Below are positions 13,308-60,754 of a stretch of DNA of 64,000 bases, piece after piece. Origin of the DNA: Escherichia coli (GTDB taxonomy: Bacteria; Pseudomonadota; Gammaproteobacteria; Enterobacterales; Enterobacteriaceae); the NCBI RefSeq assembly GCF_016026235.1, contig NZ_CP065613.1; one strand, 5' to 3'. Under the pieces are notes generated by a model. That model was not told the DNA's origin. It saw nothing but the letters and a program-made list of their open reading frames with translations, and did no database searches. A program made the translations under genes and the position numbers. The first letter of the stretch is position 1, and each line of letters opens with the position of its first letter.

Positions 13308-13353
13308 TCAAGGCCGGAAAAGATGCGTCAGCATCGCATCCGGCACTTACTCA

Positions 13354-16237: not shown

Positions 16238-16367
16238 AGTGTGGTAGAATATCAGCTTACTATTGCTTTACGAAAGCGTATCCGGTGAAATAAAGTCAAC
16301 CTTTAGTTGGTTAATGTTACACCAACAACGAAACCAACACGCCAGGCTTATTCCTGTGGAGTTATAT

Positions 16368-16697
16368 ATGAGCGATAAAATTATTCACCTGACTGACGAC
16401 AGTTTTGACACGGATGTACTCAAAGCGGACGGGGCGATCCTCGTCGATTTCTGGGCAGAGTGGTGCGGTCCGTGCAAAATGATCGCCCCGATTCTGGATG
16501 AAATCGCTGACGAATATCAGGGCAAACTGACCGTTGCAAAACTGAACATCGATCAAAACCCTGGCACTGCGCCGAAATATGGCATCCGTGGTATCCCGAC
16601 TCTGCTGCTGTTCAAAAACGGTGAAGTGGCGGCAACCAAAGTGGGCGCACTGTCTAAAGGTCAGTTGAAAGAGTTCCTCGACGCTAACCTGGCGTAA
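16368..16697 (+). CDS. trxA: thioredoxin 1
   Basis: ATG at 16368 inside track ORF; [37 protein letters not shown] (WCGPC active site), 109 aa. Confidence 0.97.
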
Positions 16698-32981: not shown

Positions 32982-33058
<77 letters not shown>

Positions 33059-33115
33059 TTTAGTCCCGGCGCTTGAGCTGCGGTGGTAGTAATACCGCGT
33101 AACAAGATTTGTAGT

Positions 33116-33192
33116 GGTGGCTATAGCTCAGTTGGTAGAGCCCTGGATTGTGATTCCAGTTGTCGTGGGTTCGAATCCCATTAGCCACCCCA
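33116..33192 (+). tRNA. hisR: tRNA-His (anticodon GTG)
   Basis: GGTGGCTATAGCTCAGTTGGTAGAGC...TTAGCCACCCCA, including the extra 5' G typical of tRNA-His. Confidence 0.95.
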
Positions 33193-33212
33193 TTATTAGA
33201 AGTTGTGACAAT

Positions 33213-33299
33213 GCGAAGGTGGCGGAATTGGTAGACGCGCTAGCTTCAGGTGTTAGTGTCCTTACGGACGTGGGGGTTCAAGTCCCCCCCCTCGCACCA
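33213..33299 (+). tRNA. leuT: tRNA-Leu (anticodon CAG)
   Basis: 87-nt long-variable-arm tRNA GCGAAGGTGGCGGAATTGGTAGACGCGCTAGCTTCAGG...CTCGCACCA. Confidence 0.95.
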
Positions 33300-33341
33300 C
33301 GACTTTAAAGAATTGAACTAAAAATTCAAAAAGCAGTATTT

Positions 33342-33418
33342 CGGCGAGTAGCGCAGCTTGGTAGCGCAACTGGTTTGGGACCAGTGGGTCGGAGGTTCGA
33401 ATCCTCTCTCGCCGACCA
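33342..33418 (+). tRNA. proM: tRNA-Pro (anticodon TGG)
   Basis: CGGCGAGTAGCGCAGCTTGGTAGCGCAACTGGTTTGGGACCAG...CTCGCCGACCA. Confidence 0.95.
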
Positions 33419-33452: not shown

Positions 33453-33564
33453 TCTGTGCATTTCGTCACCCTCCCTTCGCAATAAACGCCCGTAATAACT
33501 CATTGCCCCACGGTATGATTTCGCCCTTAACGTATTGAAGGATGACTTCAGGCAAGGAGTGACC

Positions 33565-34800
33565 ATGCTGCAACAGGTTCCAACGCGTGCTTTTCATGTG
33601 ATGGCGAAACCGAGTGGTTCCGATTGTAATCTGAACTGTGACTACTGTTTTTATCTCGAAAAACAATCCCTTTACCGCGAAAAGCCAGTCACGCATATGG
33701 ACGATGACACGCTGGAAGCGTATGTCCGTCACTATATCGCTGCCAGCGAACCGCAAAACGAAGTGGCTTTTACCTGGCAGGGCGGCGAACCAACGTTACT
33801 CGGGCTGGATTTTTACCGCCGTGCCGTAAAGTTACAGGCGAAATACGGTGCTGGCAGGAAGATAAGTAACAGCTTCCAGACTAACGGCGTGCTGCTCGAT
33901 GATAAATGGTGTGCATTTCTGGCAGAAAATCATTTTCTTGTTGGGTTATCGCTGGACGGTCCGGCTGAGATCCACAATCAATATCGCGTGACCAAAGGTG
34001 GCAGACCAACGCATAAGCTGGTGATGCGTGCCCTGACGCTGCTGCAAAAACATCATGTCGACTATAACGTGCTGGTCTGCGTCAACCGCACCAGCGCGCA
34101 GCAACCGTTGCAGGTTTATGATTTTTTGTGCGATGCGGGAGTCGAATTCATCCAGTTTATTCCGGTGGTCGAGCGCCTGGCTGATGAAACAGCTGCCAGC
34201 GATGGACTGAAACTACATGCGCCTGGTGATATTCAGGGGGAACTGACGGAATGGTCGGTGCGCCCCGATGAATTTGGTGAATTTCTGGTGGCGATATTCG
34301 ACCACTGGATCAAACGCGACGTCGGCAAGATTTTCGTGATGAATATCGAATGGGCGTTTGCCAATTTTGTCGGTGCGCCGGGTGCGGTTTGCCATCATCA
34401 GCCAACCTGTGGGCGCTCGGTGATTGTTGAGCACAACGGCGACGTTTACGCCTGCGATCACTATGTTTATCCGCAATATCGGCTGGGGAATATGCATCAG
34501 CAAACAATTGCAGAAATGATCGATTCCCCGCAACAGCAGGTGTTTGGTGAAGATAAATTTAAGCAATTACCGGCGCAGTGTCGCAGTTGTAACGTGTTAA
34601 AAGCGTGCTGGGGAGGCTGCCCGAAACACCGCTTCATGCTCGATGCCAGCGGCAAACCGGGGCTGAATTATTTGTGTGCCGGGTATCAGCGTTATTTCCG
34701 CCATCTACCGCCATATCTTAAAGCAATGGCTGATTTGCTGGCGCACGGTCGCCCGGCCAGTGACATTATGCAGGCACATTTGCTGGTGGTGAATAAGTAA
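33565..34800 (+). CDS. aslB: anaerobic sulfatase-maturating enzyme homolog (radical SAM)
   Basis: ATG at 33565 inside track ORF; MLQQVPTRAFHVMAKPSGSDCNLNCDYCFY (CxxxCxxC radical-SAM motif). Confidence 0.92.
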   Translation: MLQQVPTRAFHVMAKPSGSDCNLNCDYCFYLEKQSLYREKPVTHMDDDTLEAYVRHYIAASEPQNEVAFTWQGGEPTLLGLDFYRRAVKLQAKYGAGRKISNSFQTNGVLLDDKWCAFLAENHFLVGLSLDGPAEIHNQYRVTKGGRPTHKLVMRALTLLQKHHVDYNVLVCVNRTSAQQPLQVYDFLCDAGVEFIQFIPVVERLADETAASDGLKLHAPGDIQGELTEWSVRPDEFGEFLVAIFDHWIKRDVGKIFVMNIEWAFANFVGAPGAVCHHQPTCGRSVIVEHNGDVYACDHYVYPQYRLGNMHQQTIAEMIDSPQQQVFGEDKFKQLPAQCRSCNVLKACWGGCPKHRFMLDASGKPGLNYLCAGYQRYFRHLPPYLKAMADLLAHGRPASDIMQAHLLVVNK

Positions 34801-34835
34801 AAAAGCGGCCATTTTGTGGCCGCCTGCGGTTGATT

Positions 34836-34870
<35 letters not shown>

Positions 34871-34883
34871 TGATCGTGCAAAT

Positions 34884-35045
34884 TCAATAAATTGCAGCGT
34901 TCTGTGGATACTGGTTTGGGTGATCGTATCCGGCAAAGCCTTTGCGTGCGGTGGCAGTTGACGGGGTATCTGCTGCGCTGGCCATGAGAGGAAGAGCGGC
35001 GGCGACAGCAACAACAAGAAGTTTGGGTGAAAACGAAAATTCCAT
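34884..35045 (-). pseudogene. aslA: arylsulfatase aslA 5' remnant (53 codons; signal-peptide region only)
   Basis: Minus-strand ATG at 35045 reads [53 protein letters not shown] then stops inside the REP-linked motif; only ~240 bp separate it from aslB, where a ~1.65-kb gene is expected by synteny. Confidence 0.6.
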
Positions 35046-35468: not shown

Positions 35469-35676
35469 GGTAGATGCTCATTCCATCTCTTATGTTCGCC
35501 TTAGTGCCTCATAAACTCCGGAATGACGCAGAGCCGTTTACGGTGCTTATCGTCCACTGACAGATGTCGCTTATGCCTCATCAGACACCATGGACACAAC
35601 GTTGAGTGAAGCACCCACTTGTTGTCATACAGACCTGTTTTAACGCCTGCTCCGTAATAAGAGCAGGCGTTTTTTT
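35469..35676 (+). ncRNA. glmZ: GlmZ small RNA (activator of glmS translation)
   Basis: GTAGATGCTCATTCCATCTCTTATGTTCGCC... through terminator hairpin GCCTGCTCCGTAATAAGAGCAGGCG + T7; matches recalled GlmZ sequence and its position upstream of hemY. Confidence 0.85.
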
Positions 35677-42809: not shown

Positions 42810-42848
42810 TGAACGTGCCGGAAAGCGAGGCTTATCCGGCATGCAATC

Positions 42849-47092: not shown

Positions 47093-49255
47093 ATGGACGT
47101 TTCTTACCTGCTCGACAGCCTTAATGACAAACAGCGCGAAGCGGTGGCCGCGCCACGCAGCAACCTTCTGGTGCTGGCGGGCGCGGGCAGTGGTAAGACG
47201 CGCGTACTGGTGCATCGTATCGCCTGGCTGATGAGCGTGGAAAACTGCTCGCCATACTCGATTATGGCTGTGACGTTTACCAACAAAGCGGCGGCGGAGA
47301 TGCGTCATCGTATCGGGCAACTGATGGGCACCAGCCAGGGCGGCATGTGGGTCGGCACCTTCCACGGGCTGGCGCACCGTTTGCTGCGTGCGCACCATAT
47401 GGACGCCAATCTACCGCAGGATTTCCAGATCCTCGACAGTGAAGACCAGCTACGCCTGCTTAAGCGTCTGATCAAAGCCATGAACCTCGACGAGAAGCAG
47501 TGGCCGCCGCGCCAGGCAATGTGGTACATCAACAGCCAGAAAGATGAAGGCCTGCGTCCGCATCATATTCAAAGCTACGGTAATCCGGTGGAGCAGACCT
47601 GGCAGAAGGTGTATCAGGCGTATCAGGAAGCGTGTGACCGCGCGGGCCTGGTGGACTTCGCCGAGCTGCTGCTGCGCGCTCACGAACTGTGGCTTAACAA
47701 GCCGCATATCCTACAACACTACCGCGAACGTTTTACCAATATCCTGGTGGACGAATTCCAGGATACCAACAACATTCAGTACGCGTGGATCCGCCTGCTG
47801 GCGGGCGACACCGGCAAAGTGATGATCGTCGGTGATGACGACCAGTCAATCTACGGCTGGCGTGGGGCGCAGGTGGAGAATATTCAGCGTTTCCTTAATG
47901 ATTTCCCCGGTGCCGAAACTATTCGTCTGGAGCAAAACTACCGCTCTACCAGCAATATTCTGAGCGCCGCTAACGCCCTGATTGAAAACAACAACGGGCG
48001 TCTGGGTAAAAAACTGTGGACCGATGGCGCGGACGGTGAGCCTATTTCCCTCTATTGCGCTTTTAACGAACTCGATGAAGCGCGTTTTGTGGTTAACCGC
48101 ATCAAAACCTGGCAGGACAACGGCGGGGCGCTTGCCGAGTGCGCCATTCTCTACCGCAGTAACGCCCAGTCGCGTGTGCTGGAAGAAGCACTGTTGCAGG
48201 CGAGTATGCCGTACCGTATTTACGGCGGGATGCGCTTCTTCGAACGCCAGGAAATCAAAGATGCGCTCTCGTATCTGCGCCTGATTGCCAACCGTAACGA
48301 CGACGCGGCCTTTGAGCGTGTGGTGAATACGCCAACGCGGGGTATTGGTGACCGGACGCTGGACGTGGTACGTCAGACATCGCGCGATCGCCAGTTAACA
48401 CTCTGGCAGGCATGTCGTGAACTGTTGCAGGAAAAAGCCCTCGCCGGACGTGCTGCCAGCGCCTTACAGCGGTTTATGGAACTGATCGACGCCTTAGCGC
48501 AGGAAACTGCCGATATGCCGCTGCATGTACAGACTGACCGGGTAATTAAAGACTCCGGCCTGCGTACCATGTACGAGCAGGAGAAGGGCGAAAAAGGTCA
48601 GACGCGTATCGAAAACTTAGAGGAACTGGTGACGGCAACGCGCCAGTTCAGCTACAACGAAGAAGACGAAGATTTAATGCCGCTGCAGGCGTTCCTATCC
48701 CATGCGGCGCTGGAAGCAGGCGAAGGGCAGGCGGATACCTGGCAGGATGCGGTACAACTGATGACCATGCACTCGGCGAAAGGTCTGGAGTTCCCGCAGG
48801 TGTTTATCGTCGGTATGGAAGAGGGCATGTTCCCAAGCCAGATGTCGCTGGATGAAGGCGGGCGTCTGGAAGAAGAACGCCGTCTGGCCTACGTTGGCGT
48901 AACCCGCGCGATGCAGAAACTGACGCTGACCTACGCGGAAACTCGCCGTCTGTATGGCAAAGAGGTTTACCATCGCCCGTCGCGCTTTATTGGCGAGCTG
49001 CCGGAAGAGTGTGTGGAAGAGGTGCGCCTGCGCGCCACGGTAAGCCGCCCGGTCAGCCATCAGCGGATGGGTACGCCGATGGTCGAGAACGACAGCGGCT
49101 ACAAGCTCGGCCAGCGTGTACGCCACGCTAAGTTTGGTGAAGGCACCATCGTCAATATGGAAGTCAGCGGTGAACATAGCCGTTTGCAGGTGGCATTCCA
49201 GGGCCAGGGAATCAAATGGCTGGTGGCAGCTTACGCCCGGCTGGAGTCGGTGTAA
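47093..49255 (+). CDS. uvrD: DNA helicase II (UvrD)
   Basis: ATG at 47093 inside track ORF 46904..49255; [38 protein letters not shown], 720 aa. Confidence 0.95.
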   Translation: MDVSYLLDSLNDKQREAVAAPRSNLLVLAGAGSGKTRVLVHRIAWLMSVENCSPYSIMAVTFTNKAAAEMRHRIGQLMGTSQGGMWVGTFHGLAHRLLRAHHMDANLPQDFQILDSEDQLRLLKRLIKAMNLDEKQWPPRQAMWYINSQKDEGLRPHHIQSYGNPVEQTWQKVYQAYQEACDRAGLVDFAELLLRAHELWLNKPHILQHYRERFTNILVDEFQDTNNIQYAWIRLLAGDTGKVMIVGDDDQSIYGWRGAQVENIQRFLNDFPGAETIRLEQNYRSTSNILSAANALIENNNGRLGKKLWTDGADGEPISLYCAFNELDEARFVVNRIKTWQDNGGALAECAILYRSNAQSRVLEEALLQASMPYRIYGGMRFFERQEIKDALSYLRLIANRNDDAAFERVVNTPTRGIGDRTLDVVRQTSRDRQLTLWQACRELLQEKALAGRAASALQRFMELIDALAQETADMPLHVQTDRVIKDSGLRTMYEQEKGEKGQTRIENLEELVTATRQFSYNEEDEDLMPLQAFLSHAALEAGEGQADTWQDAVQLMTMHSAKGLEFPQVFIVGMEEGMFPSQMSLDEGGRLEEERRLAYVGVTRAMQKLTLTYAETRRLYGKEVYHRPSRFIGELPEECVEEVRLRATVSRPVSHQRMGTPMVENDSGYKLGQRVRHAKFGEGTIVNMEVSGEHSRLQVAFQGQGIKWLVAAYARLESV

Positions 49256-49257
49256 CG

Positions 49258-49372
49258 TTGCCGGATGCGGTGCTGCGCACCTTATTTGGCCTAAAAAATC
49301 ATTCATATTCAATAAATTGCAACGTCATGTATGCCGGATAGGGCGTTTACGCCGCATCCGGCATCTGCGCCA
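49258..49372. repeat. BIME-like element (two opposed REP units around a linker) after uvrD
   Basis: GCCGGATGCGGTGCTGCGCACCTTATTTGGC ... ATTCAATAAATTGCA ... TGCCGGATAGGGCGTTTACGCCGCATCCGGCA. Confidence 0.7.
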
Positions 49373-49842: not shown

Positions 49843-51268
49843 TAATGCCGATCAGTTAAGGATCAGTTGACCGATCCAGTGGCTGTGTAAGAATCCGGAA
49901 ACGCTCACTTGTTTCCGGATTTTTTTATGCACATTGGACAGGCTCTTGATCTGGTATCCCGTTACGATTCTCTGCGTAACCCACTGACTTCTCTGGGGGA
50001 TTACCTCGACCCCGAACTCATCTCTCGTTGCCTTGCCGAATCAGGTACTGTAACGCTACGCAAGCGCCGTCTTCCCCTCGAAATGATGGTCTGGTGTATT
50101 GTTGGCATGGCGCTTGAGCGTAAAGAACCTCTTCACCAGATTGTGAATCGCCTGGACATCATGCTGCCGGGCAATCGCCCCTTCGTTGCCCCCAGTGCCG
50201 TTATTCAGGCCCGCCAGCGCCTGGGAAGTGAGGCTGTCCGCCGCGTGTTCACGAAAACAGCGCAGCTCTGGCATAACGCCACGCCGCATCCGCACTGGTG
50301 CGGCCTGACCCTGCTGGCCATCGATGGTGTGTTCTGGCGCACACCGGATACACCAGAGAACGATGCAGCCTTCCCCCGCCAGACACATGCCGGGAACCCG
50401 GCGCTCTACCCGCAGGTCAAAATGGTCTGCCAGATGGAACTGACCAGCCATCTGCTGACGGCTGCAGCCTTCGGCACGATGAAGAACAGCGAAAATGAGC
50501 TTGCTGAGCAACTTATAGAACAAACCGGCGATAACACTCTGACGTTAATGGATAAAGGTTATTACTCACTGGGACTGTTAAATGCCTGGAGCCTGGCGGG
50601 AGAACACCGCCACTGGATGATACCTCTCAGAAAGGGAGCGCAATATGAAGAGCTCAGAAAACTGGGTAAAGGCGATCATCTGGTGAAGCTGAAAACCAGC
50701 CCGCAGGCACGAAAAAAGTGGCCGGGACTGGGAAATGAAGTGACAGCCCGCCTGCTGACCGTGACGCGCAAAGGAAAAGTCTGCCATCTGCTGACGTCGA
50801 TGACGGACGCCATGCGCTTCCCCGGAGGAGAAATGGCGGATCTGTACAGTCATCGCTGGGAAATCGAACTGGGATACAGGGAGATAAAACAGACGATGCA
50901 ACTGAGCAGGCTGACGCTGAGAAGTAAAAAGCCGGAGCTTGTGGAGCAAGAGCTGTGGGGTGTCTTACTGGCTTATAATCTGGTGAGATATCAGATGATT
51001 AAAATGGCGGAACATCTGAAAGGTTACTGGCCGAATCAACTGAGTTTCTCAGAATCATGCGGAATGGTGATGAGAATGCTGATGACATTGCAGGGCGCTT
51101 CACCGGGACGTATACCGGAGCTGATGCGCGATCTTGCAAGTATGGGACAACTTGTGAAATTACCGACGAGAAGGGGAAGGGCCTTCCCGAGAGTGGTAAA
51201 GGAGAGGCCCTGGAAATACCCCACAGCCCCGAAAAAGAGCCAGTCAGTTGCTTAACTGACTGGCATTA
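49843..51268 (+). mobile_element. IS4 insertion sequence (1426 bp)
   Basis: Terminal inverted repeats TAATGCCGATCAGTTAAG / CTTAACTGACTGGCATTA; perfect 12-bp direct repeat CACCTTCTGCTG at 49831-49842 and 51269-51280. Confidence 0.93.
49927..51255 (+). CDS. insG: IS4 transposase
   Basis: [34 protein letters not shown]... (442 aa, DDE type) inside track ORF 49909..51255. Confidence 0.93.
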
Positions 51269-60693: not shown

Positions 60694-60716
60694 TGCCAGA
60701 CGCGTCTTCAGAGTAA

Positions 60717-60746
60717 GTCGGATAAGGCGTTTACGCCGCATCCGAC
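60717..60746. repeat. REP palindromic unit between rhtC and rhtB
   Basis: GTCGGATAAGGCGTTTACGCCGCATCCGAC. Confidence 0.7.
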
Positions 60747-60754
60747 ATTATTTT

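Follow-up and report, generated by a model that had tools for sequence, protein, structure and literature searches.

Two BIMEs with an L linker in Escherichia coli share a conserved 15-nt core, and aslA was very probably lost beside one of them in a separate deletion at a hairpin foot

Background

The closest described relatives of the elements considered here are the BIME-1 and RIB/RIP elements, reportedly described by Gilson 1991, Bachellier 1994, Boccard & Prentki 1993 and Oppenheim 1993. The class of BIMEs with a long 'L' linker is the one that was historically called RIB or RIP. Recombinational activity of BIMEs is already an accepted view. Shyamala 1990 is said to have placed REP units at the join-points of duplications, and Bachellier 1997 (Genetics) reportedly described BIMEs as a major source of intergenic polymorphism. 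The L linker shows good conservation and often contains an IHF-binding site (Ton-Hoang et al., PMC3333891).

How does the present locus compare with these systems? The window, which is the whole stretch of 64,000 nucleotides of E. coli DNA that was analysed, holds two elements 14.4 kb apart, one after uvrD and one between aslB and aslA. They are BIMEs with an L linker, of a RIB/RIP-like or atypical class, and they are of an already known kind. Both the uvrD element and the complete aslB-aslA element of K-12 and O157:H7 are BIMEs in the general sense. Neither is a strict BIME-1 pair of y and z1, because the partner of the y unit is a y unit after uvrD (y-like + y) and a z2-like unit in the ancestral aslB-aslA element (y + z2-like). 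The long L linker of BIME-1 between CTAC...GTAG heads is present in both, 34 nt long, with the core and register of the copies in Escherichia albertii. Each locus has one element and not a tandem array, and both elements have the RIB/RIP-type location at the 3' end of a gene, starting at a distance of 4 nt past the stop codon for uvrD and 35 nt for aslB.

Results

The window and the element after uvrD

The genes of the window run in the order thrP, tRNA cluster, aslB, aslA remnant, glmZ, hemYXDC and cyaA, on to uvrD and yigE. At the gathering score, Rfam matches were obtained for four tRNAs upstream of aslB (32982-33415, + strand), the GlmZ sRNA between the aslA remnant and hemY (35470-35676, +), the TrxA 5' UTR thermometer (16298-16397, +) and the Rev39 5' UTR family (898-1187, +); no Rfam family covers the uvrD or the aslB-aslA element. 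REP units in the window were located by a Hamming scan. Apart from the two elements, there are a single z1-type REP-like unit at 7530-7565 (around 7549), a single z2-like unit at 13309-13345 whose GATGCGTCAGCATCGCATCCGGCA tail is as in the lost aslA-side REP, a degenerate hairpin after cyaA at 42816-42844, and a single y-like unit at 60713-60747. No L linker is found at any of these.

The features of the uvrD element are as follows.

49253..49255, + strand: uvrD stop codon TAA (uvrD, DNA helicase II, from the annotation in matching genomes)
49259..49294, + strand: left REP unit TGCCGGATGCGGTGCTGCGCACCTTATTTGGCCTAA, y-like, in iREP orientation, degenerate (consensus comparison and ssDNA fold)
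49295..49328, + strand: L-type linker of 34 nt between the REP units (E. albertii linkers of 34-36 nt share its core)
49307..49321, + strand: 15-mer ATTCAATAAATTGCA, uvrD copy, the L linker core (motif scan and E. albertii alignment)
49329..49363, + strand: right REP unit GTATGCCGG...CATCCGGCA, y type, in REP orientation (consensus comparison and fold)

It had been predicted that two opposed REP units flank the 15-mer linker after uvrD, and this is what is found, with the qualification that the left unit is degenerate. Compared with the consensus, the left unit has one extra nucleotide, its stem CCGG has become TTGG and its CTAC has become CTAA; as single-stranded DNA it folds weakly (-6.2 kcal/mol, z -0.88). 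The right unit agrees with the y REP consensus at 32 of 35 positions, is not of z1 type, and folds much better (-14.2 kcal/mol, z -5.46); its head reads GTAT in the window versus GTAG in K-12. The whole BIME spans 49259-49363 between the convergent genes uvrD and yigE and lies 39 nt before the yigE stop, which is on the opposite strand. K-12 has the same element with the same core, and it is contiguous in 3,010 genomes.

What might such an element do? As DNA, it would most likely be an IHF site between two extrudable hairpins. As RNA, the two units are computed to form a single long hairpin with each other (-49.5 kcal/mol, z -4.4), which would give a long stable 3' structure from 4 nt after the uvrD stop. 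This structure would be expected to protect the 3' end of the uvrD mRNA and to attenuate read-through. It might also damp termination-proximal translation, because the BIME lies only 4 nt from the stop codon. A search for an intrinsic terminator in the BIME gave nothing convincing beyond the upper stem of the left unit. These roles (IHF binding, 3'-end protection, attenuation and translation termination) are likely ones by analogy with the REP/BIME literature, to which the work of Espéli 2001 and Liang 2015 reportedly belongs. Within that literature, the analogy draws on what the introduction of PMC3479197 says of REP and BIMEs.

The region after uvrD also varies. In other E. coli lineages (1EC213, 350 and THO-015; locus ~957-1000), a short perfect hairpin TGCCGGATGCGGTG..CACCGCATCCGGCA replaces the BIME, and its arms equal the outer ends of the uvrD BIME; the next gene in these strains belongs to the SAM hydrolase/halogenase family and is not yigE. 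In the window, the yigE ORF has 143 codons versus 254 aa in K-12. Some 0.5 kb from the uvrD BIME, the gene seems to be broken up by an IS4-family transposase ORF (49909-51255, + strand, 448 aa, NF033592, E 1.5e-90).

The 15-mer as the core of the L linker

The window contains exactly two copies of ATTCAATAAATTGCA, at 34882-34896 and 49307-49321, both on the + strand, so the second identical copy that had been reported is real. No further site appears in a window scan at up to 2 mismatches, and none of 100 shuffled controls had two matches. Why, then, do two intergenic regions share the motif? To place it, the sequence ATTCAATAWATTGCA was scanned against one genome per species, and the E. albertii figures given here are among the matches listed. 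It occurs in 30 listed copies in E. albertii, while single matches in unrelated taxa, again among those listed, are evidently due to chance. In 26 of the 30 listed copies the left neighbour is a y iREP ending in CTAC, and in 27 the right neighbour is a z-type REP (z1 in 25, z2-like in 2). From CTAC to GTAG there are 34-36 nt, with a mode of 35, in 26 of the 27 listed copies that allow the distance to be measured. The E. albertii consensus thus reads from the y iREP (...GCCGGATGCGGCGTGAACGCCTTATCCGGCCTAC) through AAAATCGTGCAA to the 15-mer, and from there through GAAATCAT to the z1 REP (GTAGGCCTGATAAGCGTAGCGCATCAGGCA). The 15 core columns are the best conserved of the whole element, and the 15-mer is the family consensus core in all 30 listed copies. 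At core position 9 these have T (26 copies) or A (4 copies); the window core has A.

The same family is abundant in E. coli, and L-like linkers are numerous in every genome of the species. A 35-nt query with the aslB linker finds a median of 10 similar places per genome, and a 37-nt query with the consensus L linker finds a median of 25, with at most 40 listed for each genome. Dozens of intact BIMEs elsewhere contain the 15-mer, among the matches listed. Judged from its sequence, the 15-mer is the conserved core of the 34-35-nt BIME L linker, and the comparison with described linker motifs (PMC3333891 and the listed E. albertii copies) bears this out. Of the 9 specified positions in the IHF consensus WATCAANNNNTTR, the core agrees with 8, and neither window linker contains an exact match to this textbook consensus. 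The 15-mer overlaps the IHF-binding site that the literature describes in the L linker, and IHF may well bind here too.

The two elements therefore share the 15-mer because both belong to one BIME family. Just outside the core, the two window linkers are identical at only 16 of 32 positions, which indicates old family members and no recent exchange.

The aslB-aslA element and its ancestral state

The second copy of the 15-mer lies in the 3' flank of aslB, in a BIME that has been reduced to one REP unit and the linker.

33535..34800, + strand: aslB, anaerobic sulfatase maturase gene, intact (ORF span as listed; annotation)
34835..34869, + strand: retained y-type REP with a CTAC end, in iREP orientation (same sequence in K-12 and O157)
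34870..34903, + strand: L linker of the aslB-aslA BIME, 34 nt, retained whole (K-12/O157 comparison)
34882..34896, + strand: 15-mer, aslB copy (motif scan)
34904..34906, no strand assigned: deletion junction, with the initial GT of the lost REP's GTAG head at G34904 and T34905
34907..35045, - strand: aslA remnant of 139 nt, codons 1-46 plus 1 nt (pseudogene annotation and alignment)

The BIME starts 35 nt past the aslB stop. The remnant of aslA begins with its ATG at 35045 on the - strand, and its 46 codons equal those of K-12 AslA except for one substitution. The ORF of the remnant encodes 46 AslA residues followed by PQNAAIY, and then ends at a TGA inside the 15-mer, at bases 3-5 of the copy at 34882-34896 in the - strand reading. 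The single REP unit (the y unit at 34835-34869) and truncated aslA (a 46-codon stump) described for this site are thus both present.

K-12 and O157:H7 have kept aslA, and their spacer carries TGCCGGATGCGGCGTAAACGCCTTATCCGGCCTAC, then ATGATCGTGCAAATTCAATAAATTGCAGCGTTCT, then GTAGGCTGGATAAGATGCGTCAGCATCGCATCCGGCA. Their sequence equals that of the window up to ...GCGTTCTGT, and the 15-mer is identical. In these strains the element is complete, REP-linker-REP, with the same 15-mer beside an intact aslA and with the long z2-like loop GATGCGTCAGCATCGCATC in the right unit. The ancestral aslB-aslA element is a y REP, an L linker and a z2-like REP. The identical 15-mer of aslA-positive K-12 and O157 shows that the motif is older than the deletion and does not form its junction. 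The 15-mer is ubiquitous in intact BIMEs, but a single REP is not the general state at this locus, as the aslA-positive K-12 and O157 carry two.

Breakpoints and frequency of the aslA deletion

The deletion comprises 1,578 bp, from 1153/1154 to 2730/2731 in K-12 locus coordinates. Lost with it are the 3' spacer, all of aslA from codon 47 onward, and the z2-like REP, of which the first 2-3 bases of the GTAG head remain. The junction reads ...CTGT^G^GATACTGG... at 34905/34906/34907 (carets mark the joins), and it is located 10 nt to the right of the 15-mer, which had been taken for the junction itself. The base G34906 is an orphan that matches neither parent, because both parental flanks have A at this position. 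Besides this one non-parental base, the join shows no more than 1 nt of microhomology.

The left breakpoint falls inside the 4-nt GTAG head, within a spacer of 158 nt. The right breakpoint falls inside aslA, where a REP-like quasi-palindrome, GATAC..GTATCCGGCAAAG (CCAGATAC...GTATCCGG), has its foot. In the window, 34906-34939 in aslA reads as a quasi-palindrome GGATAC..GTATCC followed by CGTATCCGGCAAAG. The CGTATCCGGCAAAG stretch matches the tail of the lost REP at 15 of 16 nt, in register at an offset of 1573. G34906 turns an A·C mismatch of the quasi-palindrome into a G-C pair (GGATAC/GTATCC) and so perfects the stem.

Of 5,426 complete genomes, 1,728 (~32%) carry the deletion allele. The carriers that were sampled share one common joint, with G at the joint in about 1,726 of the 1,728. 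Their aslB haplotypes are 2-3% apart and include ATCC 8739-type and STEC-type strains. A common joint on divergent aslB haplotypes indicates one old event that was spread or retained across lineages. Some strains with the deletion allele, including KMi029, 81 and C9, have IS1 insertions in or next to aslB, which suggests continuing decay of the orphaned maturase gene.

Other routes to the present joint were considered and rejected. One takes the joint with A, CTGTAGATACTGG, as the ancestral form. This form is judged derived, as its carriers EcPF16 and KFu022 are otherwise equal to G-joint genomes over 2 kb; it is perhaps also present in two IS1-bearing relatives of theirs. Another assumes a variant parent that had no AGGCT (CTGTGGATAAG...), which would have allowed a clean deletion at a 4-nt GATA microhomology. 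Such a parent is absent from the 5,426 genomes, where the best full-length match to the query, at 94.4%, is the K-12 form with a 5-nt gap. A further one is recombination between the REP tail and its look-alike in aslA, ATCGTATCCGGCAAAG (15/16 nt), which predicts a deletion of 1,573 bp that keeps the REP head, unlike the one observed.

Structural alleles of the aslB-aslA spacer

Is the deletion the only change in this spacer? Across the 5,426 E. coli genomes, at least five structural alleles were found.

Allele 1: K-12-type BIME, in ~2,200 genomes
Allele 2: BIME reverse-complemented in place, with ~31 genomes matching at 99% or more
Allele 3: collapsed perfect hairpin (KC-Dl-1, locus ~395-425), explicable by a deletion of the K-12-type allele between GATGCG direct repeats
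Allele 4: single headless y REP, with no GTAG (E57, locus ~345-385), explicable by a deletion of the inverted allele between GCCGGAT direct repeats
Allele 5: the aslA deletion, in 1,728 of 5,426 genomes

For the inverted allele, the E200086 locus at 383-560 was compared with the K-12 locus at 1080-1186; the segment is orthologous to 34835-34906 of the window. The two are identical at 99 of 106 positions as reverse complements, and at 85 of 111 in direct orientation. Inverted repeats of 11 nt, TGCCGGATGCG and CGCATCCGGCA, flank the inverted segment. No prior description of an in-place inversion of a whole BIME was found in the literature compared, of which Bachellier 1997 did not form part. The collapsed alleles of KC-Dl-1 and E57 each have the right flank of their presumed parent.

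The original prediction saw in the shared 15-mer a sign of recombination or excision within this repeat family. The end of the deletion in GTAG, taken together with the series of spacer alleles, shows that REP-associated rearrangement is real at aslB-aslA, and this part of the prediction stands; the shared 15-mer is no evidence for it.

Discussion

It is highly probable that the two sites are BIMEs with an L linker, that they share the 15-mer as members of one family, and that aslA was lost in a separate deletion at the foot of a hairpin. The scenario would be that a single old deletion of 1,578 bp removed the aslA-proximal REP together with aslA from codon 47. Its left end would lie at the foot of the lost REP hairpin (GTAG) and its right end at the foot of the quasi-palindrome in aslA, and template switching, or breakage at a hairpin foot, may have led to an illegitimate join. 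Microhomology of at most 1 nt together with one non-parental base argues for such a hairpin-associated illegitimate join and not for homologous recombination between repeats. No one-step join of extant sequences yields G34906, and the mechanism is therefore inferred.

Could the position of the breakpoint at the edge of a REP be a coincidence, with aslA lost by an ordinary random illegitimate deletion? The short microhomology and the non-templated base are what generic end joining or slippage would leave, and only one event has been observed, since the carriers share their joint. However, the left end hits the 4-nt GTAG head within a spacer of 158 nt, and the right end sits at the foot of a quasi-palindrome whose register is that of the lost REP (GATA and 15/16 nt, offset 1573). 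Moreover, there are four other alleles of this spacer, and all of their breakpoints are inside REP units. We regard pure coincidence as rather unlikely.

A more specific possibility is that the deletion is a footprint of TnpA_REP (RAYT, REP-associated tyrosine transposase). On the bottom strand, the retained y REP would serve as its binding site; the enzyme would then cut at AGCC^TACAG and at GTATC^TGG in aslA, and join the flanks. Several features fit this model. Both K-12 breakpoints are C^T dinucleotides of the bottom strand, and the chance that both ends fall on C^T of the same strand is about 0.005. The left breakpoint lies in CTAC, the cleavage site II of the iREP according to PMC3333891, and the surviving y REP, with its GTAG on the bottom strand, is the unit needed for binding. 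EcPF16 and KFu022 have the very joint that the model predicts, CTGTA^GATACTGG. Against this, the joint base is G and not the predicted A in ~1,726 of the 1,728 deletion genomes, and the A form equals G-joint genomes (1008S19) over 2 kb except for that base and looks derived. The site match was recognized post hoc and covers 7 of the 8 site II consensus positions. In vitro, cleavage has been shown over a range of >400 nt, versus 1.6 kb here (PMC3333891), and it is not clear how the enzyme, a monomer, would coordinate two cleavages (PMC3479197). A role of TnpA_REP is thus quite improbable. The same holds, a shade more strongly, for the form of the model in which the aslA deletion is a natural product of the enzyme, from cuts at CTAC and at a distant C^T, and the joint was later changed by a single transition. 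If it were true, it would be the first population-level footprint of a domesticated REP transposase deleting flanking genes in vivo.

That the shared 15-mer itself ties the uvrD BIME to the aslA deletion, by exchange or by motif-guided excision, is hardly credible: an exact match of this length is unlikely by chance in random sequence and the aslA site has indeed lost one REP unit, but the undeleted K-12/O157 element already has the 15-mer, the junction is 10 nt outside the motif, the flanks of the core agree at only half of the positions (16/32), the genes between the two sites are all present, and all 30 listed E. albertii copies have the motif as their family consensus core.

The preferred reading, shared family membership and a separate deletion at a hairpin foot, has some consequences. 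The gene aslA has been scored as a variable invasion-associated gene (PMC11879602). Under this reading, its lack in about 32% of complete genomes would go back to one old deletion anchored at a REP hairpin, and not to acquisition of the gene by the other strains. The aslB-aslA spacer offers a compact natural series of BIME rearrangement alleles, which can be used to test models of REP instability. There is also a caution: exact short matches between intergenic regions of E. coli are usually REP/BIME family motifs and not marks of rearrangement.

How do the elements stand, finally, among the known systems? They resemble BIME-1 and RIB/RIP in the opposed REP pair, the 34-35-nt L linker with an IHF-site core, the single occurrence, and the extragenic location at the 3' ends of transcription units. 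They differ in that the canonical pair is y + z1 whereas here it is y-like + y (uvrD) or y + z2-like (aslB-aslA), and in having A at core position 9 where the majority has T. With the atypical BIMEs, which are chimeras of y, z1, z2, L, S, s, l and r (PMC3333891), they share an L linker with non-canonical REP partners; those occur in multiple copies like BIME-2 (PMC3333891), whereas both elements here are single. The REPIN/RAYT system is similar in that the substrates of TnpA_REP are REP doublets with a GTAG head and the left end of the deletion lies in GTAG/CTAC, at site II, but the window has no RAYT gene and the joint is one base off the expected product of the enzyme. Finally, as in the known REP-associated rearrangements, a BIME at a fixed locus varies between strains with endpoints in REP units; here, in distinction to them, one allele reaches 1.5 kb into the neighbouring gene and in another the whole BIME is inverted in place.
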